Positions 8,983 through 43,927 of a stretch of 48,333 bases of DNA are shown in pieces. The stretch comes from Clostridia bacterium (GTDB lineage Bacteria; Bacillota; Clostridia; Christensenellales; Borkfalkiaceae). The notes below the pieces were generated by a model. The model searched no databases. It saw only the letters and a program-made list of their open reading frames with translations, and was not told where the DNA came from. The stretch is taken from assembly GCA_017504065.1 (NCBI GenBank), contig JAFVRU010000176.1, positions 1 to 48,333 of the forward strand, written 5' to 3'. The translations under genes and the position numbers were made by a program. The first letter of the stretch is position 1. The number at the start of each line of letters is the position of its first letter.

Positions 8983-11418
8983 TCAGCGGAGTTCCACGCC
9001 GAGCTTGAATTTGAGATTGCCCAAAATCTTCTTCACGAACCCGTCCAACGTTTCGGGCGTGAACGCCTTTTCTGCTTGCATATCGGGCGTAAACGTCAAC
9101 GTGAACGCCATACTCTTCTTACCTTCGGGTACTTGACCGCCGCGGTATACGTCAAACAAACGAGCCTTGGTTACGTACTTGCAGGAATGCAACAACACGT
9201 TCTCGATTTCCGCGCACGTGAGTTTCTCGTCGGCAAGCAACGCAAGGTCGCGCTCCACCGCGGGGAATTTCGGTAAGTTGGTATACCGCACTCCGTCGTC
9301 CTTTTGCAGCAATATTTCCAAATCCAACTCGCCAAGGTAAACCTTTTTGTCCAAACCGAGCGCAAGCGCGATCGCGGGATCGAGTTCACCAAACGCGCCG
9401 ATTACTTGATCGTCAAGCAAAACGTTCGCCGAAACGCCGGGGTGTAAATAGGATTTTTCCGCGCGCTCCAACCCGAACGTTACGTGGAAGTTTTCCGCGA
9501 CGCGTTCCACCGCGCCTTTCATATCGAAGAAATCGTTGTCGCCACCCCAAATCCCCAACACCAAACGCTTGCGTTCTTCGGGCTGCGCGTTCACGTCCGT
9601 CGGATTCGGGAAATACACGTTCGCAATTTCAAACTCTCTACCCACGTCGTTGCCGCGGCGGATATTCCGTACCGCGTTTTGCAGCATTGACGGAGCAAGG
9701 AAGGTACGCATCACCGATAATTCTTCGCTGATCGGATTGAGTATCTTCACCGCATTGCGTTCCGCCGCGTCGTCCGCAAGCTTCATCAAATCGAAGTCTT
9801 TCGGGGAATAGAACGAGTAGTTATACGCTTCGGAAAAACCTTGTACGCGCAACACATTCTTCAAATGCAGCTCGCGTTTTTGTTCGTCGGTAAGCCCGCC
9901 GCCCGTTACGCTTGCGCTATCCAAAAACGTCGGCGTAATATGCTCGTAACCGTACATACGAATAATTTCTTCCGCCAAATCGGGATACCCGTCCACGTCG
10001 TCGCGATATCCGGGGATTTCCACCGTCAACGTATCGCCGTCGATTTGCGGTTTGAATTCCAACCGCGTCAAAATCGCTTGAATTTCCACGTTCGGAACTT
10101 CGATCCCGAGCAACGCGTTGATCTTGGAAATGCTCGCCGTCATCATTCTCGGCGCAAGCGAAACCGCGCAAACGTCTTGGCAAAGCTCGGTTACTCTGCC
10201 GCAGCCGAGTTCTTCCATCAGGTGCAACGCGCGCGCCATACCCAAAGCGTTGGTGTACGCGTCCACGCCCTTTTCAAAGCGCGACGATGAATCGGACGAT
10301 TGCCCCAAAGCCCGCGACGTCTTCCGAACGTTATCCCGCGCGAATTTTGCCGATTCAAAGAACACGTTTTTCGTCGTGGATTTGATTTCGCTATTTAAGC
10401 CGCCCATAATCCCCGCAAGCGCAACAGGCTTCTTGCCGTCGCAAATCACGAGATTTTCCGTAGTCAGCGTGAATTCTTTTTCGTCGAGCGTAACGATCTT
10501 TTCCCCGTTTTCCGCGCGACGGACGACGATTTTCCGATCGCCGAGATCGTCCGCGTCGAACGCGTGCATCGGTTGTCCCATTTCCAATAAAACGAAGTTG
10601 GTGATATCGACGATGGGCGAAATCGAACGAATCCCCGAAATCGCCAAACGTTTCCGCATCCAAGCGGGCGTTTCCCCGCCCGTTATATTTTCGACGTAAT
10701 GCCCCACGTACCGCGGACAAAGATCGGGCGCAAGCACTTCCACCGCCACGGGCGCAGCCGTCGTTTTATGCGCGGTGTACGAAACGTCGGGTTGTTTCAA
10801 CGGCTTATGCAAAACCGCCGCTACTTCGCGCGCGATCCCGAAAATACATTGACAGTCGGGACGGTTCGCCGTAATCGAAATATCAAAAATCCAATCGTCC
10901 AACCCAACGATTTTGCGGATATCTTCCCCGACAGGCGCACTCTTATCCAAATCCAACAGCCCGTCCACTTCCGCTCCTGGATAGAAATCGTCGTTGATTC
11001 CGAGTTCTTCACCCGAGCAAAGCATACCGAACGATTCCACGCCGCGGAGTTTGCCTTTCTTAATTTTCTTGACCGCGTCGGGGTTTTTCGCCAACACGTC
11101 GGGGTTGCTTTCCACGACCGTGGAATTGTCGAGCGCACAGGGCGTTTTCATTCCCACGTATACGTTGGACGCACCCGTTACGATCTGTATTTCTCTGCCG
11201 TAGGCTTCGCCGCAATCCACGACGCAAATTTGCATGTGATCGCTATCGGGGTGCGGCGTTAACGCCTTGACTTCCCCAACGACAACCCGATCGATCTTGC
11301 TCCCGAGATAGGAGAGTTCTTCCACTTCAAACCCGCAAGAAAAGAGCTTGTTTGCCAATTCTTCCGCGGAAACGTCTATATCTACGTAATCTTTTAACCA
11401 ACTTAAAGGCGCTTTCAT
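8983..11418 (-). CDS. pheT: Phenylalanine--tRNA ligase beta subunit
   Basis: 811 aa. N-terminal tRNA-binding domain, B3/4, B5 and a C-terminal anticodon-binding (FDX-ACB) layout, immediately downstream of pheS. Confidence 0.95.
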   Translation of the reverse strand: MKAPLSWLKDYVDIDVSAEELANKLFSCGFEVEELSYLGSKIDRVVVGEVKALTPHPDSDHMQICVVDCGEAYGREIQIVTGASNVYVGMKTPCALDNSTVVESNPDVLAKNPDAVKKIKKGKLRGVESFGMLCSGEELGINDDFYPGAEVDGLLDLDKSAPVGEDIRKIVGLDDWIFDISITANRPDCQCIFGIAREVAAVLHKPLKQPDVSYTAHKTTAAPVAVEVLAPDLCPRYVGHYVENITGGETPAWMRKRLAISGIRSISPIVDITNFVLLEMGQPMHAFDADDLGDRKIVVRRAENGEKIVTLDEKEFTLTTENLVICDGKKPVALAGIMGGLNSEIKSTTKNVFFESAKFARDNVRKTSRALGQSSDSSSRFEKGVDAYTNALGMARALHLMEELGCGRVTELCQDVCAVSLAPRMMTASISKINALLGIEVPNVEIQAILTRLEFKPQIDGDTLTVEIPGYRDDVDGYPDLAEEIIRMYGYEHITPTFLDSASVTGGGLTDEQKRELHLKNVLRVQGFSEAYNYSFYSPKDFDLMKLADDAAERNAVKILNPISEELSVMRTFLAPSMLQNAVRNIRRGNDVGREFEIANVYFPNPTDVNAQPEERKRLVLGIWGGDNDFFDMKGAVERVAENFHVTFGLERAEKSYLHPGVSANVLLDDQVIGAFGELDPAIALALGLDKKVYLGELDLEILLQKDDGVRYTNLPKFPAVERDLALLADEKLTCAEIENVLLHSCKYVTKARLFDVYRGGQVPEGKKSMAFTLTFTPDMQAEKAFTPETLDGFVKKILGNLKFKLGVELR

Positions 11419-30379: not shown

Positions 30380-30853
30380 TTAGATTTGCAACAAAATTTC
30401 TTTTAACAATACTTTTGCTTGAATATCGTTGATTATATCAATTTCAGTGCCTGCATTATATTTGGTATTACATTGTTGCAAATTCGCTTTTGTATACCAT
30501 ATTATAGCTGTTTTATAGTGTCGTGATTTCTCTTCAACAAATTCTTTTGATTTGTCTTTTCCGTGCTTTTTATGACAACAAACTACAACTAATTCACAAT
30601 TATAGTAATCAAAAAATTCAAATGGATGTAGTAAATCTTTTTTCCTGTCACCAATAGAAGTTACACCAATAATATGTTTATTTATATCGAATATTGCAGA
30701 AAAATCTCCGTCATGGTTTTCTACATAATAGGCAACTCTTTTGTATGCAGAGCATAACTTTTGATACAATTTTGTTATAACCATTGTTTTGCCAACATTA
30801 GATTTGCCTTGTAATGCAATTATTTTAATCAAATTTATACTCCTTTTTTCCAT
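30380..30853 (-). CDS. Small orphan P-loop NTPase
   Basis: Walker A GKSNVGKT lies directly after an N-terminal beta-strand (IKIIALQ). The start is either ATG 30851-30853 or TTG 30830-32, the latter having AAGGAG 7 nt upstream. It overlaps the lipoprotein gene end by 8-29 nt. About 30% G+C. Confidence 0.55.
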   Translation of the reverse strand: MEKRSINLIKIIALQGKSNVGKTMVITKLYQKLCSAYKRVAYYVENHDGDFSAIFDINKHIIGVTSIGDRKKDLLHPFEFFDYYNCELVVVCCHKKHGKDKSKEFVEEKSRHYKTAIIWYTKANLQQCNTKYNAGTEIDIINDIQAKVLLKEILLQI

Positions 30854-32129
30854 ATCTATAATTATTTTGTTGCACAAAAGCAATGTTAATATCTTCAATC
30901 ATTAAACATTCTGTGATATTACCAAATTCATTTATATAATACCTATACCATCCTTGTGGGTTCTCAAATACAAAACTTTTAAATTCTGTACGATCGTATC
31001 CGTCCATAAATATTCTTGCATCAATGTATTCTACTTTTTCACCAATTATCACATCTGTTTTATTTGCCGGTAATCCTAGAAATGATGAACAATACTGCCA
31101 ACCATCACCTACAATATTATCATTAAATAAACCACAATTAATAGCGTTCCAGTGAATTTTAAATAATCTATAACAATTACTAAATGCATAAGGGCCTATT
31201 TTTTTTATACTGCTGGGTATAAAAATCTCTTCCAAACTATCACACCAAGAAAAAGCGTGCCCCTGTATTATTTCTATACCGTCACATATTATTACTTTTC
31301 TTAAAATTTTATCATCCTTAAAGGCGCTATTTCCTATTCTTACTGGAAATGAATTTATGAATGATGGAATGACCAGTAGGGTTTGTGTTTTATTTTTTCT
31401 TCCTGTTATTGTAGCTTCTCCGTTTGACACTTTATAATTAAAAACAGTTGAATCAGTTTTAATCCATTTTGCATAAATTGAAGAGCTTGTTTTAAAGTTC
31501 TGTTCTTTTTCCACAGGCAAACTACAATATTCATCAATAAACCAACCATAAAAGTATTTTTCAATATACTTATTTGTAGTTATGTCTTGTGGTTTTTTAG
31601 GTAATTCAATCTTGTAATTTTGTTTTTTACTTGTAAACAACGTAGCAAATAATTCACCATCCACATACGCTTTAATTTGAATTAATTTACTACCTTCATC
31701 AATAATTGTGTTTTGTTCAATGCATCCATATCTTGAACACAATGAGGTTTTTGTGCCATCTTTTTCAAAAGTAGCATTATCATCTGAAATATAATCATTA
31801 AAATCATGTCCTAATGCTGTTCCTAATTTTGTTTTAATATCCAAAGTTCCACAACCATTACCACAAATAGCTGTTTCCGTACCGTCAACTTCACACTTAG
31901 TGTCGTTATTATAGATATAATCCTTAAAGTCGTGGTCTAGTGCGTCAACGTAATCGTCAACGTAACTATCACCACAAGAGCAAGTATACGTTGTATATCC
32001 TTGTTCTGTACAAGTAGGTGCTGTAACACTAGTAGTATAACTATGCTCATGACCGCAAGCTGTTAAGCCTAATATAGAACATAAAGCCAAAGTTAACGTT
32101 AATATTGTCATTAAATGTTTTCTTTTCAT
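30825..32129 (-). CDS. Multi-domain surface lipoprotein: three Cys-rich modules, a Listeria-Bacteroides (Flg_new-like) repeat and BspA-type leucine-rich repeats
   Basis: The ATG at 32127-32129 has AAAGGAG upstream. Signal peptide with lipobox LGLTAC. Three H[ED][HF]...C...DGT.T..C..GC modules. YGWFIDEY...SSIYAKW. LRR_5-like IPSSIKKIGPYAFSNCYRL. Confidence 0.75.
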   Translation of the reverse strand: MKRKHLMTILTLTLALCSILGLTACGHEHSYTTSVTAPTCTEQGYTTYTCSCGDSYVDDYVDALDHDFKDYIYNNDTKCEVDGTETAICGNGCGTLDIKTKLGTALGHDFNDYISDDNATFEKDGTKTSLCSRYGCIEQNTIIDEGSKLIQIKAYVDGELFATLFTSKKQNYKIELPKKPQDITTNKYIEKYFYGWFIDEYCSLPVEKEQNFKTSSSIYAKWIKTDSTVFNYKVSNGEATITGRKNKTQTLLVIPSFINSFPVRIGNSAFKDDKILRKVIICDGIEIIQGHAFSWCDSLEEIFIPSSIKKIGPYAFSNCYRLFKIHWNAINCGLFNDNIVGDGWQYCSSFLGLPANKTDVIIGEKVEYIDARIFMDGYDRTEFKSFVFENPQGWYRYYINEFGNITECLMIEDINIAFVQQNNYRYGKKEYKFD

Positions 32130-32161
32130 AAATCTTCTCCTTTTTCTAGCAAAAATAAAAA

Positions 32162-32185
32162 GTGCGTCTACCGAAGTAAACGCAC
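32162..32185 (-). terminator. Intrinsic terminator inside the 5' leader of the lipoprotein gene
   Basis: Minus strand GTGCGTTTAC-TTCG-GTAGACGCAC (10 bp including one G-U), followed by TTTTTATTTTTGC. It lies about 20 nt upstream of the RBS. Confidence 0.65.
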
Positions 32186-32373
32186 AAAAACGCAAACTCC
32201 GATAGTCGCCAAACCAATTTCAAGCAAGTAAGGATAACCATACTAAAAACCTGATGGAATTTGCATTTTATCAAATTCATTGATTTTTAGTATGCTTAAA
32301 ATAAGTATAAATATCTCCCTAAAAAAGAAAATATCCCTACTTTTGCTTGTTATGAAATTGATTTGGCATAATT

Positions 32374-32402: not shown

Positions 32403-32424
32403 GCAGTTTTGTGTGGATAAAAGA

Positions 32425-32451
32425 AAACTCGACTTACCAAAAGTTGAGTTT
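32425..32451 (-). terminator. Intrinsic terminator downstream of proS (located inside the cassette)
   Basis: 11-bp stem AAACTCAACTT/AAGTCGAGTTT (one G-U), followed by TTTTCTTTTAT on the minus strand. Confidence 0.6.
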
Positions 32452-32467
32452 CAAAACTATTCAATTT

Positions 32468-32512: not shown

Positions 32513-33943
32513 TTAATAAGCTCTTGCGTAAACCAATACGTGTTCGGCTTTCTTGCCGCATACCGCGCACGTTTCCGCGCTTTCGCCTTCCGCGTATACA
32601 CGCGCCGTCGCCGCCGTTTGCTCCTTGATTTTATCTTCGCATTCACGGCAACCGCACCAGCCCGCTTTGACAAAATTCCCCGCTTCTACGCCCGCGAGAA
32701 TCCCTGCCATATCGTCCGCATACACAATCCGTTCGTCCCGACGTTTTCTCGCCGCTTCCAGCATATCCTTTTGCACCGTCTTCAGCAACGCTTTTACGCT
32801 ATCCGCAGCGCCTGCAAGCGGCAATTCCGTCTTTTCCAACGTATCCCGCCGCGCGCACAGCATCTTGCCCGCTTCAATATCGCGCGGTCCGAGTTCAATC
32901 CGTACAGGCACGCCTTTCATTTCCCATTCGTTGAACTTCCAACCAGGGCTATTATCACTATTATCGAGCGTTACTCGAATACCTGCCCCTTCCAATTCCG
33001 CTTTTAACGCTTCACAAGCTTCCACAACGCCGCCCTTTCTCGCCGCAATCGGAACGATTACGCATTGAATCGGCGCTACCACCGGCGGGAGCACCAAACC
33101 GCGTTCGTCGCCGTGCGTCATGATGATCGCGCCAATCAAGCGAGTGGAAACTCCCCAAGACGTCGTGTAAGCCGTTTTATGCGCTCCGTCGTTGTCCAAG
33201 AACTGAATATCGAACGCCGTAGCGAAATTCTGCCCCATATAGTGCGAAGTTCCGGCTTGCAAGCTCTTTCCGTCGCGCATCATCGCTTCCATGGTATACG
33301 TCGCAATCGCGCCCGCAAACTTTTCCTTTTCCGTTTTTCGACCCGTCATTACGGGAATTGCAAGACAATTTTCGGCAAATTCCTTATATACTTCGAGCAT
33401 TTGCAGCGTTTCTTCCTGCGCTTCTTCGGAAGAAGCGTGTACGGTATGCCCTTCCTGCCACAAGAACTCGCTCGTACGCAGGAACGGACGCGTCGTCTTT
33501 TCCCAACGCATAACGTTACACCATTGATTGACTTTCATCGGCAAATCTCGATAGGATTGAATCCATTTCCCGCACATCGTACCGATAATCGTTTCCGACG
33601 TAGGACGGATTGCCAAAGGCTCGGCAAGCGTTTCCCCGCCCGCTACGGTTACTACCGCTACTTCGGGCGCAAACCCTTCCACGTGTTCCGCTTCTTTGGT
33701 AAAATAACTCATCGGAATGAGCAAGGGGAAATACGCGTTTTCCACGCCTTGTTTCTTGAAACGGGTATTCAGTTCACTTTGAATACTCTCCCAAATCGCA
33801 TAGCCGTACGGACGAATGACCATCGTGCCTTTCACCGGTCCGTAATCGACCAATTTGGTCTTTAATACAACGTCCGTATACCATTGCGGGAAATCCGCGT
33901 TGATATCGGCAATTTGTTCTACGAATTGATTTTCTTTTGCCAT
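32513..33943 (-). CDS. proS: Proline--tRNA ligase (archaeal/eukaryote-like short type with C-terminal zinc-binding domain)
   Basis: 476 aa. FPQWYTDVVLKTKLVDYGPVKGTMVIRPYGYAIWE, class II motifs, and C-terminal CGCRECEDK...CAVCGK. Confidence 0.95.
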   Translation of the reverse strand: MAKENQFVEQIADINADFPQWYTDVVLKTKLVDYGPVKGTMVIRPYGYAIWESIQSELNTRFKKQGVENAYFPLLIPMSYFTKEAEHVEGFAPEVAVVTVAGGETLAEPLAIRPTSETIIGTMCGKWIQSYRDLPMKVNQWCNVMRWEKTTRPFLRTSEFLWQEGHTVHASSEEAQEETLQMLEVYKEFAENCLAIPVMTGRKTEKEKFAGAIATYTMEAMMRDGKSLQAGTSHYMGQNFATAFDIQFLDNDGAHKTAYTTSWGVSTRLIGAIIMTHGDERGLVLPPVVAPIQCVIVPIAARKGGVVEACEALKAELEGAGIRVTLDNSDNSPGWKFNEWEMKGVPVRIELGPRDIEAGKMLCARRDTLEKTELPLAGAADSVKALLKTVQKDMLEAARKRRDERIVYADDMAGILAGVEAGNFVKAGWCGCRECEDKIKEQTAATARVYAEGESAETCAVCGKKAEHVLVYARAY

Positions 33944-34006: not shown

Positions 34007-35500
34007 TCAATCCGCAAAAGGATCTTTATCAAAATCTACCAAACTGAACGGTTTCTTTTCTTCGACAACCTTATTCGACTGCGACACACCCGACTTTAAC
34101 ATCTTGCGGTTTTCTTTACGCAATTCGAACACGTTATTGCACGCAGGACAACAATGGTACGCCGAAGAATCCTTGACCGTCAACCGCTTTTTGCAAGTCG
34201 GGCAAAGAATTTGCCACTTGGAAATTTGCGTCGGCTTGCTTTCTTCTTTTTCTTCCACGACCGTTTCCACCAGGGGTTGCGGCTGCGGTTTCGGTTCTTC
34301 ACGGCTCGGCATCGGCAGTACGTAACAGGGTACGGGATACGGAGCGTGTACGTTCACAACCGGTGGCATCGGCATCGGATACGGCATATACGGGGGCATA
34401 GCCGGTTGCGGCAACGGTTGTTGTAACGGTTGTTGTGGTTGCTCCACCGCAGCAATTTCGTCCGTTTCGTCGTCCGACTTCTTCCAATTCGCCTTTAAAA
34501 CGCATTCCAAAACAAAGATTGCAAGCGCGATCCCCGCTACGATCAAGTACTCGTGGAAGTATTCCGCTTTCCCAGCTTCTTTTGTCTTCCACCAAATATA
34601 CCCGAAACACCCTGCGGCAAACAACGCCGTCAAAAGCGAGAATACTCGGAAATTCTTCATACCTTTTCCGTCTCTACCGAAGAAATTAAATTCCGTATTC
34701 GCCGTCGCGTGTTTCACGAGCACAAGCGCGCACAATACCGTTGCCGCTTGCAAGCCCAAATAAATCCATTCTTCCGTACTGCAAACCGTGAATTTGTCTT
34801 GGAGCATGACGGAATACACGTACAATCCGATATTGCTGATTTCCAAGAAGAAATACAAAATCCCGACAACCGCAGCAAGCTGCAATAAGTTCCCCAAGAA
34901 ATACAGGAATAACCCGTAGGGACGTGTTGCTTCTTCCACAGACGTACTGTTTTTAAACTTCCGAACTCCGCCGCCAACCAAGCCCGCGAGCCAATGCACT
35001 CCCAAGCCAACACCCAACGTCAGGTAGCCGAACAGCGTCAACTCCACATCCATAAACGCGTTCTCTTTCCAGCCAAAGAACAGGAAATACAGGAAATAGT
35101 AGATCACGTAGCACGCAAACGAGCCCGAGAAAATACTGCCCATTTTTTCCATTGCGTCGCGATTGCGATCCTTCCGAGCCATGGAGTGTTTATGTAAGCC
35201 CCCAAGACGGAATAAAGCTTTCAGAGCATTGAACAAAATTGCAATCAGGAACAACGATAAAAAGACGTAAAAATACGAGAATTTTGATACGTCAGGCAAC
35301 GCCTTGAAGAAATTCTTGTACCAATCTACGTAGTCTATTACCGAAAACGCTTCCCCATTAATTTTTAAGAATGGTAAAAACGCCAATACCGCCAAAGCGA
35401 TTGTGCCCAAGAAATAGATCCAACCGACGTTCCGCGCTTTATTCTGTTCCTTTCTGATCCGTCTTACCGCCATTTCACCGACCGATCCGTACGCTCTCAT
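34007..35500 (-). CDS. Paralog 1 of an uncharacterised polytopic membrane protein family; carries a Pro-rich linker and a C-terminal zinc ribbon
   Basis: 497 aa. Shares SIFSGSFA, GLGVHWLAGLVGG, GNLLQLAAVVGILYFFLE and LVKHATANTEF...GMKNFRVFS with the two upstream genes. Tail: PQQPLQQPLPQPAMPPYMPYPMPMPP, then CPTC-x14-CPAC. Confidence 0.7.
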   Translation of the reverse strand: MRAYGSVGEMAVRRIRKEQNKARNVGWIYFLGTIALAVLAFLPFLKINGEAFSVIDYVDWYKNFFKALPDVSKFSYFYVFLSLFLIAILFNALKALFRLGGLHKHSMARKDRNRDAMEKMGSIFSGSFACYVIYYFLYFLFFGWKENAFMDVELTLFGYLTLGVGLGVHWLAGLVGGGVRKFKNSTSVEEATRPYGLFLYFLGNLLQLAAVVGILYFFLEISNIGLYVYSVMLQDKFTVCSTEEWIYLGLQAATVLCALVLVKHATANTEFNFFGRDGKGMKNFRVFSLLTALFAAGCFGYIWWKTKEAGKAEYFHEYLIVAGIALAIFVLECVLKANWKKSDDETDEIAAVEQPQQPLQQPLPQPAMPPYMPYPMPMPPVVNVHAPYPVPCYVLPMPSREEPKPQPQPLVETVVEEKEESKPTQISKWQILCPTCKKRLTVKDSSAYHCCPACNNVFELRKENRKMLKSGVSQSNKVVEEKKPFSLVDFDKDPFAD

Positions 35501-35538
35501 AATATCTTCTCTCCCATTTTGGTTTTTTCTCTTTTGTT

Positions 35539-36651
35539 TTAAATTCTGCCTTCATAGCTGACGGTGTCAAAAATCACGCCCGTCCGCACTTTCTTTTTCT
35601 TACCCGTCAACGCGTCTTCGTCCGACGTCGCTTTCATATCCACGAAGAAATCGATCAAGAATCCCGCCAGCGCCAACGCCGATAAAACCGCAGGAATCCA
35701 AATTTTTCCGCCGTCAATCAGAGCCCAAACCGTCGCTCCGATCGCAACCAAGAACAGTAATACGGAATAACCGCGGAATTTCTTCGCTCCTTTCGCCTGT
35801 TTTCCCGCTTGATCGAATTCCCGATCCGACGTCGCATGCGAAACCAAGGCAAAGGTAAGCAACATCATCAAAACTTGCAACCCGCAATCGATCAAAAGCG
35901 TCTTATTTTCCAAAACGCCGTCCAAACCGCCCGCGACGAACGTTGCAATCGCTACGGGGAAGGAATTGCGCTCCAACAGCAAGAACCATACCGCCGCCAT
36001 AATACAAAGCTGTAATAAATTTCGGAAAAACGGCGCGATTCGTCCGATTTCCCGCTTGTGTTCTACGTAATCGGCTTTGGATACGTCGTAGCTAAACAAA
36101 CTCACTTTGCCGCCCATCAAGCCGCACCAGAAATGGAATACGAGCCCAACGCCGAGCGTTGCCGCGCCCAAAATTTGCATTTCCGCGTAGTCTTTGCCAC
36201 AGACCAAGAAAATCAATGCGTATAAGTTGCACACGCTCGCAAACGAGCCGGAAAAAATTCGCCCAATGCGTTTTAAATGCACGAAATTTTCGTTAAAACC
36301 GTGTTCCCGCGTTACCCGTTCCCGATACAGTCCGCCCCTTTGCGCAAAACAACGGAACAGATTGATGAGCAGCGTAGAGAGCAACAACGCATAGATACAA
36401 GCCGCGACAAACCCCGTCAAAGGCAGAGTTTGTAAGGGTTTTTGCCATTTCAACAAATCCCAAACGTGGAAAACGTCCAAAGCGACGTTCTTTCCATCGG
36501 CTACGTCTATTTTGACGAACGCAAACAGCGCCGCCAAGATCGGAAGCGCAATCACGCCCAACAAATATAACGTACCGACAATTTTCATTTTACGGTGCGC
36601 CGAACGGACTTTTTTCCGTAACGCAACCGCTTTCGAATTGGTTATCTGCAT
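35539..36651 (-). CDS. Paralog 2 of the uncharacterised polytopic membrane protein family (short tail)
   Basis: 370 aa. RIFSGSFA, GLVFHFWCGLMGGK, RNLLQLCIMAAVWFLLLE and LVSHATSDREF...GAKKFRGYS. Confidence 0.7.
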   Translation of the reverse strand: MQITNSKAVALRKKVRSAHRKMKIVGTLYLLGVIALPILAALFAFVKIDVADGKNVALDVFHVWDLLKWQKPLQTLPLTGFVAACIYALLLSTLLINLFRCFAQRGGLYRERVTREHGFNENFVHLKRIGRIFSGSFASVCNLYALIFLVCGKDYAEMQILGAATLGVGLVFHFWCGLMGGKVSLFSYDVSKADYVEHKREIGRIAPFFRNLLQLCIMAAVWFLLLERNSFPVAIATFVAGGLDGVLENKTLLIDCGLQVLMMLLTFALVSHATSDREFDQAGKQAKGAKKFRGYSVLLFLVAIGATVWALIDGGKIWIPAVLSALALAGFLIDFFVDMKATSDEDALTGKKKKVRTGVIFDTVSYEGRI

Positions 36652-36732
36652 AATTTTTCCCCATTATATCAAACGCACGCTCCCCCGAAGTTTGTCGGGG
36701 GAAACGCGCTCTTTATCGTTCGGTATGCCCAA

Positions 36733-38067
36733 TCAATAATTATATTCCATGTTGTTTTTTTGCGGATATCCATTCGGCTGACCCATAGGATATGCAGGGT
36801 TATAGTTCGCGGAAAGGAAATCGTCCAAATCCATTTCGTCGCTCGACATGGGAGCAGGCATAGGCTGTTCTTCCACCATATCCATCTTCCCCTTTATGCC
36901 CGCTTTTTTCAGCAGCTTTTCTTCTTTGCTGCGCGGCATGTTATGCATAATGAGTTCGATGATGAACATAACGAACGCAATCGCCGCGATGATCACGAAT
37001 TCCAAACTCGTATCCTTGATCGCTTTGATGAGTTCTTTTGCTTCGGAGAGTTTTTCCAACGGAGCCCACATTCCGAGAACAAATCCCGCTTCCCCGAACA
37101 AATATCTACAAGCGATTACGCCTACAACTGAGAGCACGGTGAAGAACGCGAATACGCGATAATTCTTCATTCCCGCGGCATGTTTGCCTTCAATACCGTA
37201 TTCCGTCGAAGCCGTCGCGTGCTTTACAAGCACCATAAGCCAAATAATCATAACGACTTGCACCGCCGTTGCGATGAAATAGAACATTTTGTCCTTATTC
37301 ATCACGTATTCTTTAAACGCGCCTTTTTGGAGCAACGGATCGATACAAACCGCAATCGTCGTCGCTTTCAAGAAGAAATACAGCATCGCGAACGCAGCCG
37401 CTACTTGCAACAAGTTCCGAATGAACGGCGCAACTCTGCCGCAATCCCGTTTTTGTTCGACGATTCCCACGCCTTCATGGATCACGAACAAGCTCGCCTT
37501 GCCGCCCCAGAGCCCGCAAAGGAAATGCACCGCAAGTCCGCCTGCGAGCACAAAAATCAACCATTTCACGTTTTCGAATTTCAACAATTCCAAGGGCAAG
37601 CCCGACAAAACGCAAATGACGAAATTGATCAAAATAATCACGGCGAACGAACCGGAGAAAATTCGGCTCAAATCTTCCATAGCATATACGTTACGGTTAA
37701 ACCCGTACGTTTTACTCGCCTTTTTCTTAAACAACCAGTTGAGTTTGGAAAGCGCCTTGAAAACGTTAATGAGCAACGTAAACAACAGCAACCCGTACAG
37801 GATGTAAGGTACGTAATGATAAATCCCCGCCGCCGTTTTCAAATTGTCGAGTTTCATACCTTTAAAGACTTTGTAAAATTCCGTTACTTGTAATTGGGAC
37901 AACGTGCCGATGTCCAAGAGCGGCAAACAAGCCGCCGCAGCCAACGCCATCGTTGCAAGCAAATACAAGATCCCGACGAACTTTGCGCGGGAACGCGTTT
38001 TTGCAATGCGCTTTTTTAAGTAAACGCTCTGTTTGGTCGGTACAGTTTTCACTTTGTACTTTCTCAT
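36733..38067 (-). CDS. Paralog 3 of the uncharacterised polytopic membrane protein family (extra helices, acidic/Pro-Tyr tail)
   Basis: 444 aa. RIFSGSFA, GLAVHFLCGLWGGK, RNLLQVAAAFAMLYFFLK and LVKHATASTEY...GMKNYRVFA. Confidence 0.7.
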   Translation of the reverse strand: MRKYKVKTVPTKQSVYLKKRIAKTRSRAKFVGILYLLATMALAAAACLPLLDIGTLSQLQVTEFYKVFKGMKLDNLKTAAGIYHYVPYILYGLLLFTLLINVFKALSKLNWLFKKKASKTYGFNRNVYAMEDLSRIFSGSFAVIILINFVICVLSGLPLELLKFENVKWLIFVLAGGLAVHFLCGLWGGKASLFVIHEGVGIVEQKRDCGRVAPFIRNLLQVAAAFAMLYFFLKATTIAVCIDPLLQKGAFKEYVMNKDKMFYFIATAVQVVMIIWLMVLVKHATASTEYGIEGKHAAGMKNYRVFAFFTVLSVVGVIACRYLFGEAGFVLGMWAPLEKLSEAKELIKAIKDTSLEFVIIAAIAFVMFIIELIMHNMPRSKEEKLLKKAGIKGKMDMVEEQPMPAPMSSDEMDLDDFLSANYNPAYPMGQPNGYPQKNNMEYNY

Positions 38068-38152: not shown

Positions 38153-38181
38153 ATTATACATTTTTTTCTTTGTATTGTCAA
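38153..38181 (-). promoter_or_regulatory. Sigma-A-type extended -10 promoter of the three-paralog array
   Basis: TTGACA (38176-38181), 17 nt, TGTATAAT (-10 at 38153-38158), about 85 nt upstream of the paralog-3 ATG. Confidence 0.6.
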
Positions 38182-38244: not shown

Positions 38245-38781
38245 TCACTTGTGCTTTTTAAATTTCTTCTTATACGCGGCAATACATTTTTCAATGCATT
38301 CCATCGCTTCGTCGCGATGACAAATTTCCTTGACTGTCGTTTGTTTATGCTCCAAGGATTTATACACTTCGAAGAAGTGCATCATTTCATCGAATACATG
38401 CTTGGGCAATTCGTGAATATCGTAATAATTGTTATACGTAGGATCGCCGAACGGAATCGCAATAATTTTCTCATCAAGCGAACCGTTGTCGATCATTTTG
38501 ATCACGCCGATCGGATAACACCGCACGAGCGTAGTTGGATAAATCGTTTCTCCGCATAAAACCAAAACGTCCAAAGGATCTTCGTCTTCCGCGTACGTTT
38601 TGGGAATAAACCCGTAATTTGCGGGATAGACCGTGGACGTATATAATACCCGATCGAGCTTTAAGCAACCCGTTTCTTTGTCCAATTCATATTTTGTTTT
38701 GCAGCCTTTGGGAATCTCAATAAACGCTTCGAAACTTTTTGGCGTAATGCGATCCAAAGAAATGTCATGCCAAATATTCAT
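38245..38781 (-). CDS. ppa: Inorganic pyrophosphatase (family I)
   Basis: From the internal ATG (MNIWHDISL...): IEIPKGCKTKYELDKETG, YPANYGFIP and DPLDVLVL are family I PPase blocks. Confidence 0.9.
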   Translation of the reverse strand: MNIWHDISLDRITPKSFEAFIEIPKGCKTKYELDKETGCLKLDRVLYTSTVYPANYGFIPKTYAEDEDPLDVLVLCGETIYPTTLVRCYPIGVIKMIDNGSLDEKIIAIPFGDPTYNNYYDIHELPKHVFDEMMHFFEVYKSLEHKQTTVKEICHRDEAMECIEKCIAAYKKKFKKHK

Positions 38782-39372: not shown

Positions 39373-39464
39373 TGGCGCAGAAGGCGGGATTCGAACCCGC
39401 GCTACGGTTTTCCCATACTACTCCCTTAGCAGGGGAGCCCCTTGAGCCTCTTGGGTACTTCTGC
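39373..39464 (-). tRNA. tRNA-Ser (anticodon GCU), CCA encoded
   Basis: Hand-folded. Acceptor GCAGAAG/CTTCTGC, anticodon stem CTCCC/GGGAG with loop CTGCTAA, long variable arm, T-arm GCGGG-TTCGAAT-CCCGC, discriminator G, CCA. Confidence 0.9.
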
Positions 39465-42100: not shown

Positions 42101-42337
42101 TTAGTTTTCGTATGTAGTTACGTAAGCTTCCGACGTGGGATACGAAGAAACGTCTTTGACCATCTTTTCCCCTTTGCGAATGCGTAATAACGTATTGCAA
42201 ACCGGACACATATAGGCTACGCCGCCCGTTTTCATATTCAACGCTGCGCCGCATTTCGGACAATTCACTACGTAGTTCTTTACTTCTTCCTGTGTTTGTA
42301 CGGGCGTTGCCGCAACTTTTTGTTTTTTCGCTTTCAT
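42101..42337 (-). CDS. Free-standing small zinc-ribbon protein, homologous to the tail of membrane paralog 1
   Basis: 78 aa from the ATG at 42335-42337 (RBS AGGTGGAG). CPKC-x14-CPVCN-x5-RK matches CPTC-x14-CPACN-x5-RK in the 34007-35500 product. Confidence 0.6.
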   Translation of the reverse strand: MKAKKQKVAATPVQTQEEVKNYVVNCPKCGAALNMKTGGVAYMCPVCNTLLRIRKGEKMVKDVSSYPTSEAYVTTYEN

Positions 42338-42476: not shown

Positions 42477-42731
42477 TTAAAAGATATTCCCCCCGAGCAA
42501 CATCAGTAGGAAATACAGCGCCGCCAAAACCAACAACACGACGCACATCGGGAAAACCATCATCTTTACCGCATTCCAATACGTGCGCCATTTTTGCCTG
42601 CCCGTCGACTTACGCCGCGGTGGCGGCGGCGGTTGCGGCGTGCCCTGGCGGTTCACGCTCGACATATCCGCAATCGTGGAATTGTCGTCGTAATAAATGA
42701 CCTTTTCCTTTTTTTGCTTCTTTCGAGCCAT
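42477..42731 (-). CDS. Small single-pass membrane protein translationally coupled to the last ABC ATPase gene
   Basis: 84 aa from the ATG at 42729-42731. The AGGAG RBS overlaps the oppF-like stop. Lys-rich N-terminus, PQPPPPPRRK, and one C-terminal TM helix. Confidence 0.5.
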   Translation of the reverse strand: MARKKQKKEKVIYYDDNSTIADMSSVNRQGTPQPPPPPRRKSTGRQKWRTYWNAVKMMVFPMCVVLLVLAALYFLLMLLGGNIF

Positions 42732-42733
42732 AC

Positions 42734-43927
42734 TTACTCCTGTTCGTAACAATGACAAGCTACGAAATGCCCGTCTTCATACTCCTGATATTTGGGAGCG
42801 ATATGTTGACAGATCTCCATCGCTTTCGGGCAGCGCGTATGGAATTTACAACCCTTCGGCGGGTTTGCGGGGGACGGAATATCCCCTTTCAACAAGATAC
42901 GATCCACCTTTTCGTTGGGATCAGGGTTAGGAACAGCGGAGAACAACGCTTGCGTATACGGGTGCAAGGGTTTGTCGAAAATCGCTTGCTTGCCGCCGAA
43001 TTCCACCATCGAACCGAGATACATAACGCCGATTTTATCAGAAATGTGTTTTACAACCGACAAGTCGTGCGAAATGAACAAATACGTGAGTTGACGTTCC
43101 TGTTGCAATTTCTTCAACAAGTTGATGATTTGCACTTGAATCGACACGTCGAGCGCGGAAACCGGCTCGTCGCAAATGACGAGTTTGGGCGCAACCGCCA
43201 AAGCCCGCGCGATACAAATACGTTGACGTTGCCCGCCCGAGAATTCGTGCGGGTATCTTTCGTAATAGTAATCACGAAGACCGCATTGTTCCATAATCCC
43301 CAATACGTATTCCTTGACTTGTTCGGGTGGAACAATCTTATGTACTTTTACGGGTTCAGACAAAATGTCGCCAACCGTGCTTCTGGGCGGCAACGAAGAA
43401 TACGGATCTTGGAATACAATCTGCATTTTCGTACGCAACGCGCGCATTTGCTTGGAGCTAAACCCCGCGATATCCTGCCCTTCAAAGAAAATTTGTCCTT
43501 CCGTCGGCTGATGCAGCTTTAATATCGTTCTGCCCATCGTAGTCTTTCCGCAACCGGATTCCCCTACGATCCCGAGCGTTTCGCCGGGGTGGATTTTGAT
43601 AGAAACGTCGTCCACCGCTTTCAGCGTCGAAAGGGGTACGCCCATCAAAGTCTTTTTCAACACGAAATGTTTCTTCAAATGGCGAACTTCGAGCAAAGCG
43701 TCGGGATCGGGCGGAAGCAATCTATCCGCGTCGATCTGCGCTTGGCGCTCCGCTTCTTCTTTCGCTTGTTCGGCTACGTCGTCGAATGCAACTTCCGTTT
43801 CCACGGCTACGTTTTCCGTCGTCGGTTCTACCGTTTCCGCAGTTTCTTGGATTTCGTTGTCAACCGTCGCGCTCGCTTCACCTTGAAGCGTTACGTCCGA
43901 TTGTACTTCTACGTCTTTTTTCTTCAT
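42734..43927 (-). CDS. Oligopeptide/dipeptide ABC transporter ATP-binding protein (OppF-like) with an acidic N-terminal extension
   Basis: 397 aa. Walker A GESGCGKTT, signature FSGGQRQR, Walker B LVICDEPVSALD and the C-terminal oligo_HPY region. The first 80 aa or so are E/T/V/D-rich low complexity. Confidence 0.85.
   Translation of the reverse strand: MKKKDVEVQSDVTLQGEASATVDNEIQETAETVEPTTENVAVETEVAFDDVAEQAKEEAERQAQIDADRLLPPDPDALLEVRHLKKHFVLKKTLMGVPLSTLKAVDDVSIKIHPGETLGIVGESGCGKTTMGRTILKLHQPTEGQIFFEGQDIAGFSSKQMRALRTKMQIVFQDPYSSLPPRSTVGDILSEPVKVHKIVPPEQVKEYVLGIMEQCGLRDYYYERYPHEFSGGQRQRICIARALAVAPKLVICDEPVSALDVSIQVQIINLLKKLQQERQLTYLFISHDLSVVKHISDKIGVMYLGSMVEFGGKQAIFDKPLHPYTQALFSAVPNPDPNEKVDRILLKGDIPSPANPPKGCKFHTRCPKAMEICQHIAPKYQEYEDGHFVACHCYEQE

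Follow-up and report, generated by a model that had tools for sequence, protein, structure and literature searches.

The 48,333-nt contig JAFVRU010000176.1 of a Clostridia bacterium (assembly GCA_017504065.1), hereafter the window, carries on its minus strand a tandem array of three open reading frames (ORFs), situated between ppa and proS, whose products we term paralogs A, B and C. Paralog A (36733-38067, 444 aa) is the first gene of the array, has a ribosome binding site (AAGGAG) ahead of its ATG, and is predicted to consist of a core of eight transmembrane (TM) helices and a 67-aa cytoplasmic tail that is acidic and rich in Tyr and Pro (about 36736-36936). Paralog B (35539-36651, 370 aa) has the same eight-TM core followed by a short tail of 33 aa. 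Paralog C (34007-35500, 497 aa) joins its eight-TM core (residues 1-337; 34490-35500) to a predicted cytoplasmic linker of low complexity that is first acidic and then Pro-rich (residues 338-432; 34205-34489), and this leads to a C4 zinc ribbon, CPTC-x14-CPAC (residues 433-454; 34139-34204, or about 34112-34216 with its flanks). The gaps between A and B, B and C, and C and proS are 81, 38 and 63 nt, respectively.

Judged by their sequences, A, B and C are paralogous, as their pairwise similarity lies well past chance: BLASTP gives E 2e-36 for A against B (28% identity over 386 residues), E 1e-32 for B against C (31% over 349) and E 5e-42 for A against C (32% over 371). An earlier note on this DNA, made from the sequence alone, had proposed three diverged tandem paralogs that share four sequence blocks. 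The BLASTP values bear out the first part, and the four blocks are present and invariant in all three window copies and near-invariant across 111 family members. Gene sizes, coordinates and gaps given in the note were confirmed from the ORF positions, and its account of three dissimilar C-terminal tails was likewise correct. Its count by eye of eight to nine TM helices resolves to eight, both in the hydropathy profile and in an AlphaFold2 model.

For the membrane core of the three paralogs there was no match above noise in Pfam, NCBIfam, PADLOC or PHROG, and sequence and profile searches of the PDB were also without a match. When 111 aligned members were scanned one by one against Pfam, weak generic zinc-ribbon models were all that appeared among the best 25 of 97 families, and the PHROG match was limited to the ribbon and to a family of unknown function. 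With no confident hit to a characterised family, the description of the family as unrecognised holds at the level of sequence; it does not hold for fold, where the N-terminal module falls in the claudin/TARP/LetA class, as set out below. Six relatives were recovered by a single-sequence search and 155 by a profile of the three paralogs, while an HMMER search run exhaustively against 1.84 billion cluster representatives returned 405 at E ≤ 1e-3, 259 at E ≤ 1e-10 and 217 at E ≤ 1e-30, the source names being solely "hypothetical protein [Clostridia bacterium]". A locus survey in which each of 185,579 GTDB species was represented by one genome yielded 58 loci, all of them from 'Candidatus Scatosoma', a genus placed by NCBI in Clostridia incertae sedis, or from unclassified Clostridia/Clostridiales metagenome-assembled genomes (MAGs). 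Where named, the MAG sources are deer, sheep, goat or faecal samples. The array is therefore shared by relatives, with one to four copies in the 58 species genomes, and as far as these sequence collections reach the family is restricted to one uncultured group of gut Clostridia. Our literature search found the family described in no paper, and mentions of 'Scatosoma' were confined to surveys of taxonomy or microbiomes. Searches by tblastn (phages and plasmids) and megablast (plasmids) gave no copies on phages or plasmids. We rejected a defence, phage or plasmid origin, given these searches, the empty PADLOC result and a comparison of the full-length paralog B model with a viral structure library that gave no significant match.

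Family hydropathy places the TM segments, in paralog B numbering, at residues 27-46, 82-100, 135-153, 161-178, 211-229, 253-270, 295-308 and 319-335. Counting Lys plus Arg residues gives a mean of 28.7 for the N-terminus, the region after TM8 and loops 2-3, 4-5 and 6-7, compared with 7.2 for the other loops. By this asymmetry, with which the C-terminal position of the Cys4 ribbon agrees, the topology is N-in/C-in and the tails and the ribbon are cytoplasmic. Using the segment boundaries of the hydropathy profile, 33 of the 35 near-invariant positions fall in loops or at helix ends on the cytoplasmic side, and none falls in an outer loop. The conserved polar set that is kept in A, B and C consists of N97, N120, R121, N122, S134, S136, H173, E197, R200, R210, N211, Q214, H272, E278 and K290. 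There is a conserved cytoplasmic cap, made up of an extended TM2/TM3 hairpin (FNRNxYAMEDLGxIFSGS), a beta-hairpin (E.KR..GR..F.RNLLQ) and the TM6-7 loop (KHATAxTEYN..G..GMKNFR).

This pattern of conservation resembles that of interfacial membrane enzymes, and the family could on that account be a hydrolase or transferase acting on a lipid head group or a lipid-linked precursor. Its active site would then be composed of H173, H272, E278, the Asn/Arg residues and S134/S136. Every candidate catalytic residue is kept in all paralogs, the array has a consensus promoter that implies housekeeping-type expression, and the neighbouring gene encodes a pyrophosphatase. However, no enzyme family was matched by sequence or fold, and the proteins contain no known catalytic motif, be it HExxH, HxxxH or PAP2. 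The sequence GxxGGKxS was considered as a Walker A motif and rejected, as it has the wrong spacing and is situated where a TM helix ends. An enzyme would also be oddly arranged as up to four tandem isozymes in fixed order, with tails that look like those of scaffolds, and we consider an enzymatic role unlikely. Nor could we detect by sequence the internal duplication of the core that the earlier note had suggested: hhalign of the N-half against the C-half gave a probability of 0.5% (E 0.13, 17 columns), and the idea was rejected at that level.

The AlphaFold2 model of full-length paralog B, built with a 111-sequence alignment, has a predicted local distance difference test score (pLDDT) of 89.6 and a predicted template modelling score (pTM) of 0.88, and consists of two four-TM halves. 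In the first, TM1 (helix 6-42) is followed by strands 46-50 and 54-57, an interfacial helix (60-67), TM2 (78-108), TM3 (121-151), strand 156-158 and TM4 (160-180), with TM2 and TM3 extending into the cytoplasm. The cytoplasmic beta-hairpin (185-198) comes next, and the second half comprises TM5 (205-228), an outer helix (231-248), TM6 (250-273), TM7 (291-313) and TM8 (318-339); in this TM5-8 half the outer loop is helical and there is no beta-sheet. A Foldseek search of the PDB and BFVD with the full-length model gave nothing significant. The top two matches were LetA, with the best E of 0.16, and the scramblase XKR8, and the query TM-scores (TMq) did not exceed 0.36. When the N-terminal module (residues 1-183; 36103-36651, minus strand) was modelled alone (pLDDT 90.3), the best 50 Foldseek matches in the PDB were all of the claudin fold. 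GARLH4/LHFPL4 was the best match (E 3.2e-3, probability 1.00), and others included TARP gamma-2/5/8 chains (TM-score up to 0.51), claudin-3, claudin-4, GSG1L and a de novo designed claudin fold, with Escherichia coli LetA at rank 6 (E 0.029, probability 0.85). This list is completely uniform though no single score is strong. The modelled module is a four-TM, N-in/C-in bundle with an outer sheet from loops 1 and 2, as in the claudin fold, and we assign it a predicted claudin-class fold on what are borderline statistics. The family is thus new by sequence and, by fold, a bacterial claudin/tetraspan-like variant for which LetA is the sole prokaryotic precedent.

LetA is composed of two consecutive related modules, each with a zinc ribbon and a tetraspan-like transmembrane domain in which four TM helices are accompanied by one interfacial helix and an outer sheet whose three strands come from loops 1 and 2 (PMC13017536). 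Together, its transmembrane domains create a hydrophilic cleft that opens to the cytoplasm, carries a conserved motif and holds a phospholipid, and its partner is the MCE tunnel LetB (PMC13017536). The present proteins resemble the LetA/PqiA family (PF04403), the inner-membrane component of the LetAB and PqiABC lipid transport systems of Proteobacteria, in several respects: they are likewise bacterial and, in the model, built of two consecutive four-TM halves, the elements of the N-terminal module and their order are the same, a C4 zinc ribbon (CxxC-x11-18-CxxC) lies on the cytoplasmic side, and the best-conserved motifs face the cytoplasm. LetA has one ribbon immediately N-terminal to each module, the two packing together, whereas here a single C-terminal ribbon hangs from a tether of 60-700 aa in one subtype; the LetA halves are ~25% identical, whereas those of the present family have no detectable relation; and LetA is found in Proteobacteria, whereas the present proteins occur in Bacillota as one to four tandem copies. 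The GRWSM-psi-D-psi-F cleft motif of LetA (PMC13017536) is absent from the family consensus. PF04403 was not matched by the three paralogs at E ≤ 1, nor among the best 25 of 97 families in the 111-member scan at E ≤ 0.1. We rejected membership of LetA/PqiA, as hhalign matched only ribbon to ribbon. Since most tests for LetA fail, we treat it as the closest analogue and not as the family to which these proteins belong.

The animal claudin-fold proteins (claudin, TARP, LHFPL including GARLH4, GSG1L and PMP22) share with the N-terminal module the N-in/C-in four-TM bundle and the outer sheet from loops 1 and 2, at TM-scores of 0.42-0.51 and a sequence identity of 5-16%. Claudins and TARPs have three to five strands in this sheet and the present module has three; unlike the family described here, the animal proteins have neither a fused second four-TM bundle nor a conserved cytoplasmic cap. 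Pfam models for claudin, PMP22 and LHFPL were not matched by the paralogs at E ≤ 1 or, among the best 25 of 97 families, by the 111 members, and PDB sequences of these proteins gave nothing at E ≤ 10. The W-GLW-C-C loop signature is absent, and loop 1 lacks a conserved Cys pair. The phospholipid scramblases XKR8 and XKR4, which have about eight TM helices, came at ranks 2, 17 and 21 of the full-length fold search with scores that are not significant (E 0.3-1.3, TMq 0.29-0.36), and we take them as a lead only.

Beyond TM8 the tails begin with a basic stretch and continue as acidic low-complexity sequence rich in Pro, Tyr and Gln, with a total length of 18 to about 770 residues. The 160-aa tail of paralog C (linker and ribbon) is 16% Pro, and homologous linkers in relatives can extend to about 700 aa built of tandem repeats. 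Of 254 representatives, 136 carry the ribbon, and the tails of ribbon-bearing members measure 83 to about 770 aa. By its sequence, the end of the paralog C tail conforms to the definition of a C4 zinc ribbon, CxxC-x(11-18)-CxxC. The family consensus is V.CP.CgK.L.v.....YHRCP.CgKVF, with all four Cys invariant in 131 aligned ribbons; non-Cys positions are 71-95% conserved, with P at 99%, L at 92%, R at 93%, V at 87% and F at 95%. Many Pfam zinc-ribbon models match it weakly (best E 8.3e-5). A membrane anchor that carries a small terminal domain on a long P/Q-rich, low-complexity cytoplasmic linker of variable length is also found in ZipA and FtsK; they show no homology to the present proteins, in which the anchor is a conserved eight-TM core and the terminal domain a zinc ribbon. 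Non-Cys residues of the LetA ribbon tolerate mutation (PMC13017536), whereas the conserved non-Cys surface of the present ribbon argues for a specific partner.

In six relatives of 823-1146 aa (P0208, P0211, P0158, P0164, P0199 and P0143), the linkers are hundreds of residues of near-perfect tandem repeats or Q-rich, coiled-coil-like sequence, with repeat units of the types PPINVHVPKQ and TPIVVNVPKQAKAE. Their expansion suggests that linker length is evolving rapidly. Extra domains in these long members were looked for with Pfam and rejected, as only repeat or low-complexity linkers were found. A short acidic tail motif found in 26 of 252 sequences, against 1.2 in shuffles, was defined post hoc and tuned on the data, and we do not rely on it. 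The window also encodes a free-standing ribbon protein of ~78 aa (42101-42337, minus strand), whose ribbon (NCPKCGAALNMKTGGVAYMCPVCNTLLRIRK) matches the family-profile ribbon at E 1.7e-9 and has as its best PHROG match phrog_4875, a family of unknown function (E 7.8e-7). Relatives of it are found in L003 (2550-2879), L013 (2787-3311), L011 (3901-4209), L046 (1054-1656) and L030 (4420-4827), the L numbers denoting loci of the survey, and in some relatives these ORFs are 136-201 aa long. The free-standing protein could be a partner or a competitor of the tethered ribbon.

Copies of the family always share one strand within a locus and number one in 17 loci, two in 18, three in 23 (including the window) and four in 3. 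The ribbon-bearing copy is the last in 38 of the 43 complete multi-copy arrays; the ribbon occurs on 1 of 70 non-last copies, and on 10 of the 17 copies that stand singly. In a distance tree of the cores, sequences were grouped largely by array position, with the first-position copies together. From this agreement between a fixed subtype order and the tree, the A, B and C types are old subfamilies and not recent local duplications. Locus L033 (1-2911) is arranged as a mirror image, with a family copy and ppa encoded on the minus strand opposite a second ppa and the normal array on the plus strand; in no other locus does a ribbon-bearing copy come before the last place of the listed order.

Three subtypes with different tails in a fixed order, together with variable outer loops, are what one might expect of a membrane organiser or adaptor akin to tetraspanins, claudins and TARPs, that is, a lateral scaffold on whose cap other proteins dock while the tails and ribbon recruit cytoplasmic partners, much as the long P/Q-rich linkers of ZipA or FtsK do. 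The matches of the N-terminal module are all claudin-fold proteins that serve in adhesion or as auxiliary subunits, and the variable low-complexity tails end in a ribbon whose conserved non-Cys surface suggests a specific partner. Such a density of invariant polar residues at the interface (two His, Glu, Arg, Asn, Gln and Ser) would, however, be unusual for a pure scaffold; the neighbourhood holds no co-varying partner gene; and the ribbon is missing from 7 of the 17 single-copy loci. We regard an organising role as possible but somewhat doubtful.

The reading that we put forward, tentatively and by analogy with LetA, is that the proteins may form a hetero-oligomeric device handling an inner-leaflet lipid or another amphiphile. 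Subtypes A, B and C would assemble side by side in the membrane, with the polar cluster at the level of the inner leaflet (N97, S134, S136, H173, R210, N211, Q214, H272, E278 and K290) as the working site. As in the cleft of LetA, this site would bind the head group of the lipid or amphiphile and then move or present the substrate. The tethered ribbon would lie outside the pathway, as an assembly element or one that regulates or recruits. In favour of this reading stand the claudin-fold matches of the N-terminal module, LetA among them, the place of LetA and XKR8 as the top two full-length matches, though not significant ones, and the retention of every conserved polar residue in all three window paralogs.

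Several observations weigh against this proposal. The fixed subtype order is the sole basis on which hetero-oligomerisation is suggested, and there are few polar residues in mid-membrane. The fold evidence comes from the search with the N-terminal module, and its statistics are borderline, as no match reaches E 1e-3 and TM-scores are at most 0.51. Claudin-fold proteins of eukaryotes are, moreover, mostly organisers and not transporters. An hhalign comparison of the family with LetA and PqiA aligned the ribbons only (33 columns, probability 30.7%), using a shallow LetA+PqiA profile that was started from E. coli letA and pqiA and held LetA orthologs at least 77% identical, plus PqiA. No MCE domain was found among the 30 window proteins scanned or the called genes of L001 and L002, and the outer loops are poorly conserved, with nothing like the functionally important periplasmic pocket of LetA.

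The claudin/tetraspanin superfamily had been seen as an invention of eukaryotes until the LetA structure of 2026, and discussion of LetA-like proteins has so far been tied to the MCE tunnels of double-membraned bacteria. The present family would widen this picture, as it combines a claudin-fold module, a second four-TM bundle and a tethered ribbon in MAGs of Bacillota only, with no MCE partner nearby. It might represent a second, independent prokaryotic lineage of the claudin/tetraspan fold, which follows the LetA plan of a double four-TM body, a conserved site facing the cytoplasm and a zinc ribbon but without the MCE tunnel, and which acts as a free-standing scramblase or transporter of lipids or amphiphiles or as a new class of membrane organiser made of three co-expressed subtypes, although we hold this to be doubtful. 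The family could help to test whether the plan of a double tetraspan plus ribbon serves generally to handle lipids or generally as a scaffold. It also offers a structural foothold for ~250 clusters of "hypothetical proteins", conserved and apparently under strong expression in a group of uncultured but widespread Clostridia of the animal gut. The clade is narrow, and the fold evidence consists of predicted models with borderline scores.

The array is flanked upstream by ppa (38245-38778, minus strand), which encodes a family I inorganic pyrophosphatase (Pfam Pyrophosphatase, E 4e-59) and forms a separate transcription unit, and downstream by proS (32513-33943, minus strand), which encodes a prolyl-tRNA synthetase of the archaeal/eukaryote type (Pfam tRNA-synt_2b, HGTP_anticodon and ProRS-C_1). 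In nearly all of the 58 loci the gene immediately upstream is ppa, and in most the next one downstream is proS; the exceptions include L004, L005 and L026, where proS is absent within more than 5 kb downstream. In L006 (9346-10776), proS is present as two adjacent ORFs (9346-9942 and 9946-10776), the split being due to a frameshift or internal stop or to misassembly. Constant neighbours of this kind, with probable read-through into proS in the window, could point to a transporter of a small solute used by them, such as proline, taken up or exported, for the synthetase, or pyrophosphate or phosphate in connection with ppa. However, a wider block (xanthine/uracil permease, ppa, array, proS, helix-turn-helix (HTH) gene, mcsB and clpC) is syntenic throughout the clade, so adjacency to ppa and proS carries little information. 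In 14 of 45 loci proS is preceded by a promoter of its own, in the three loci named above it is missing downstream, ppa is a separate unit, the membrane core has no charged or polar site for a substrate in mid-membrane, and the fold is not that of a known transporter. We consider such a transporter improbable, although these points disfavour it only weakly. In a lipid-handling device, adjacency to ppa and proS would be a positional legacy of the clade with no functional coupling.

The promoter of the array (38153-38181, minus strand) consists of TTGACA (38181-38176), a 17-nt spacer and TATAAT (38158-38153), and matches the consensus at 12 of 12 positions. The earlier note had called it an extended -10 promoter; the consensus elements stand, but it is not extended, since the TG abuts the hexamer. 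A promoter with at least 10 of 12 consensus positions is found between ppa and the array in 45 of 52 related loci and in none of 70 gaps within arrays, so that the array is a conserved transcription unit. As the note had also stated, no canonical terminator precedes proS: a hairpin followed by a U run was found in none of the gaps before proS in the window. What it had missed is a GC-rich stem-loop without a U tract in the A-B gap (36675-36709, minus strand; -25.6 kcal/mol, z -4.68, with 0 of 200 shuffles as stable). The stem-loop is followed by TGATATAAT (36671-36663), which sits ~12 nt before the start codon of B, and hairpins occur in the A-B gap of L003 and L001 as well. It might stabilise the mRNA or serve in its processing, act as a leaky terminator or constitute an internal, near-leaderless promoter, and may set the relative mRNA levels of A versus B, C and proS.

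Neither a hairpin nor a promoter is present in the 63-nt gap between C and proS, and to judge from this gap the array is probably transcribed through into proS in this genome. Across the clade, the array-to-proS gap contains a separate TTGAAA-17-TATAAT promoter in 14 of 45 loci and strong hairpins in about 20 loci; neither is found in 24, including the window and its closest relative, L003. Co-transcription with proS, as the note had proposed, is therefore plausible here but not conserved; given the proS promoters, the hairpins and the loci without proS, read-through does not belong to the system as such.

The Pro-rich linker is always in the copy that adjoins proS, and one could imagine it as a sensor of Pro-tRNA supply that tunes proS expression in the manner of an attenuation leader. 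Yet the Pro-rich stretch ends ~200 nt before the stop codon and is followed by the conserved, folded ribbon, and the 63-nt gap has no terminator/antiterminator pair. The Pro-rich, ribbon-bearing last copy, furthermore, persists where no proS follows (L004, L005 and L026) or where proS has its own promoter. We rejected this explanation, which is highly improbable and essentially refuted. A structured RNA around the operon, such as a T-box or riboswitch, was also rejected, as Rfam detected just one tRNA in the window.

GC-rich, strong hairpins recur in the gaps of related loci (for example L025, L056, L017, L044, L013 and L008), mostly without a clear U run. The best 45-nt window reaches -15 kcal/mol or below in 36 of 44 array-to-proS gaps and in 22 of 65 gaps within arrays. 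These hairpins have no obvious sequence in common and may be weak terminators or stabilisers. In the window, a weak AU-rich hairpin followed by a U run (32424-32452, minus strand; -9 kcal/mol, z -1.5) lies 60-90 nt past the proS stop codon and is a possible, if weak, candidate for the end of the transcription unit.

The stretch that separates proS from the HTH-mcsB-clpC genes in the window holds a gene (30825-32195, minus strand) whose product is a leucine-rich-repeat protein of the BspA type, with a signal peptide like that of lipoproteins. The gene lies in an island of 31% GC among neighbours of 46-50% and is associated with a promoter-like site (32402-32374) and a hairpin (32162-32185). In locus L001, proS adjoins the HTH gene directly with no BspA-type gene between them, which suggests that the gene in the window is a recent foreign insertion. 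A 93-aa ORF (42477-42758, minus strand), located between the opp ATPase genes and the gene for the free-standing ribbon protein, has a basic N-terminus and a run of PPPPPP, with a single TM helix at the C-terminus. The tRNA gene (39376-39464, minus strand), which is long at 89 nt, lies between ppa and the xanthine/uracil permease gene.

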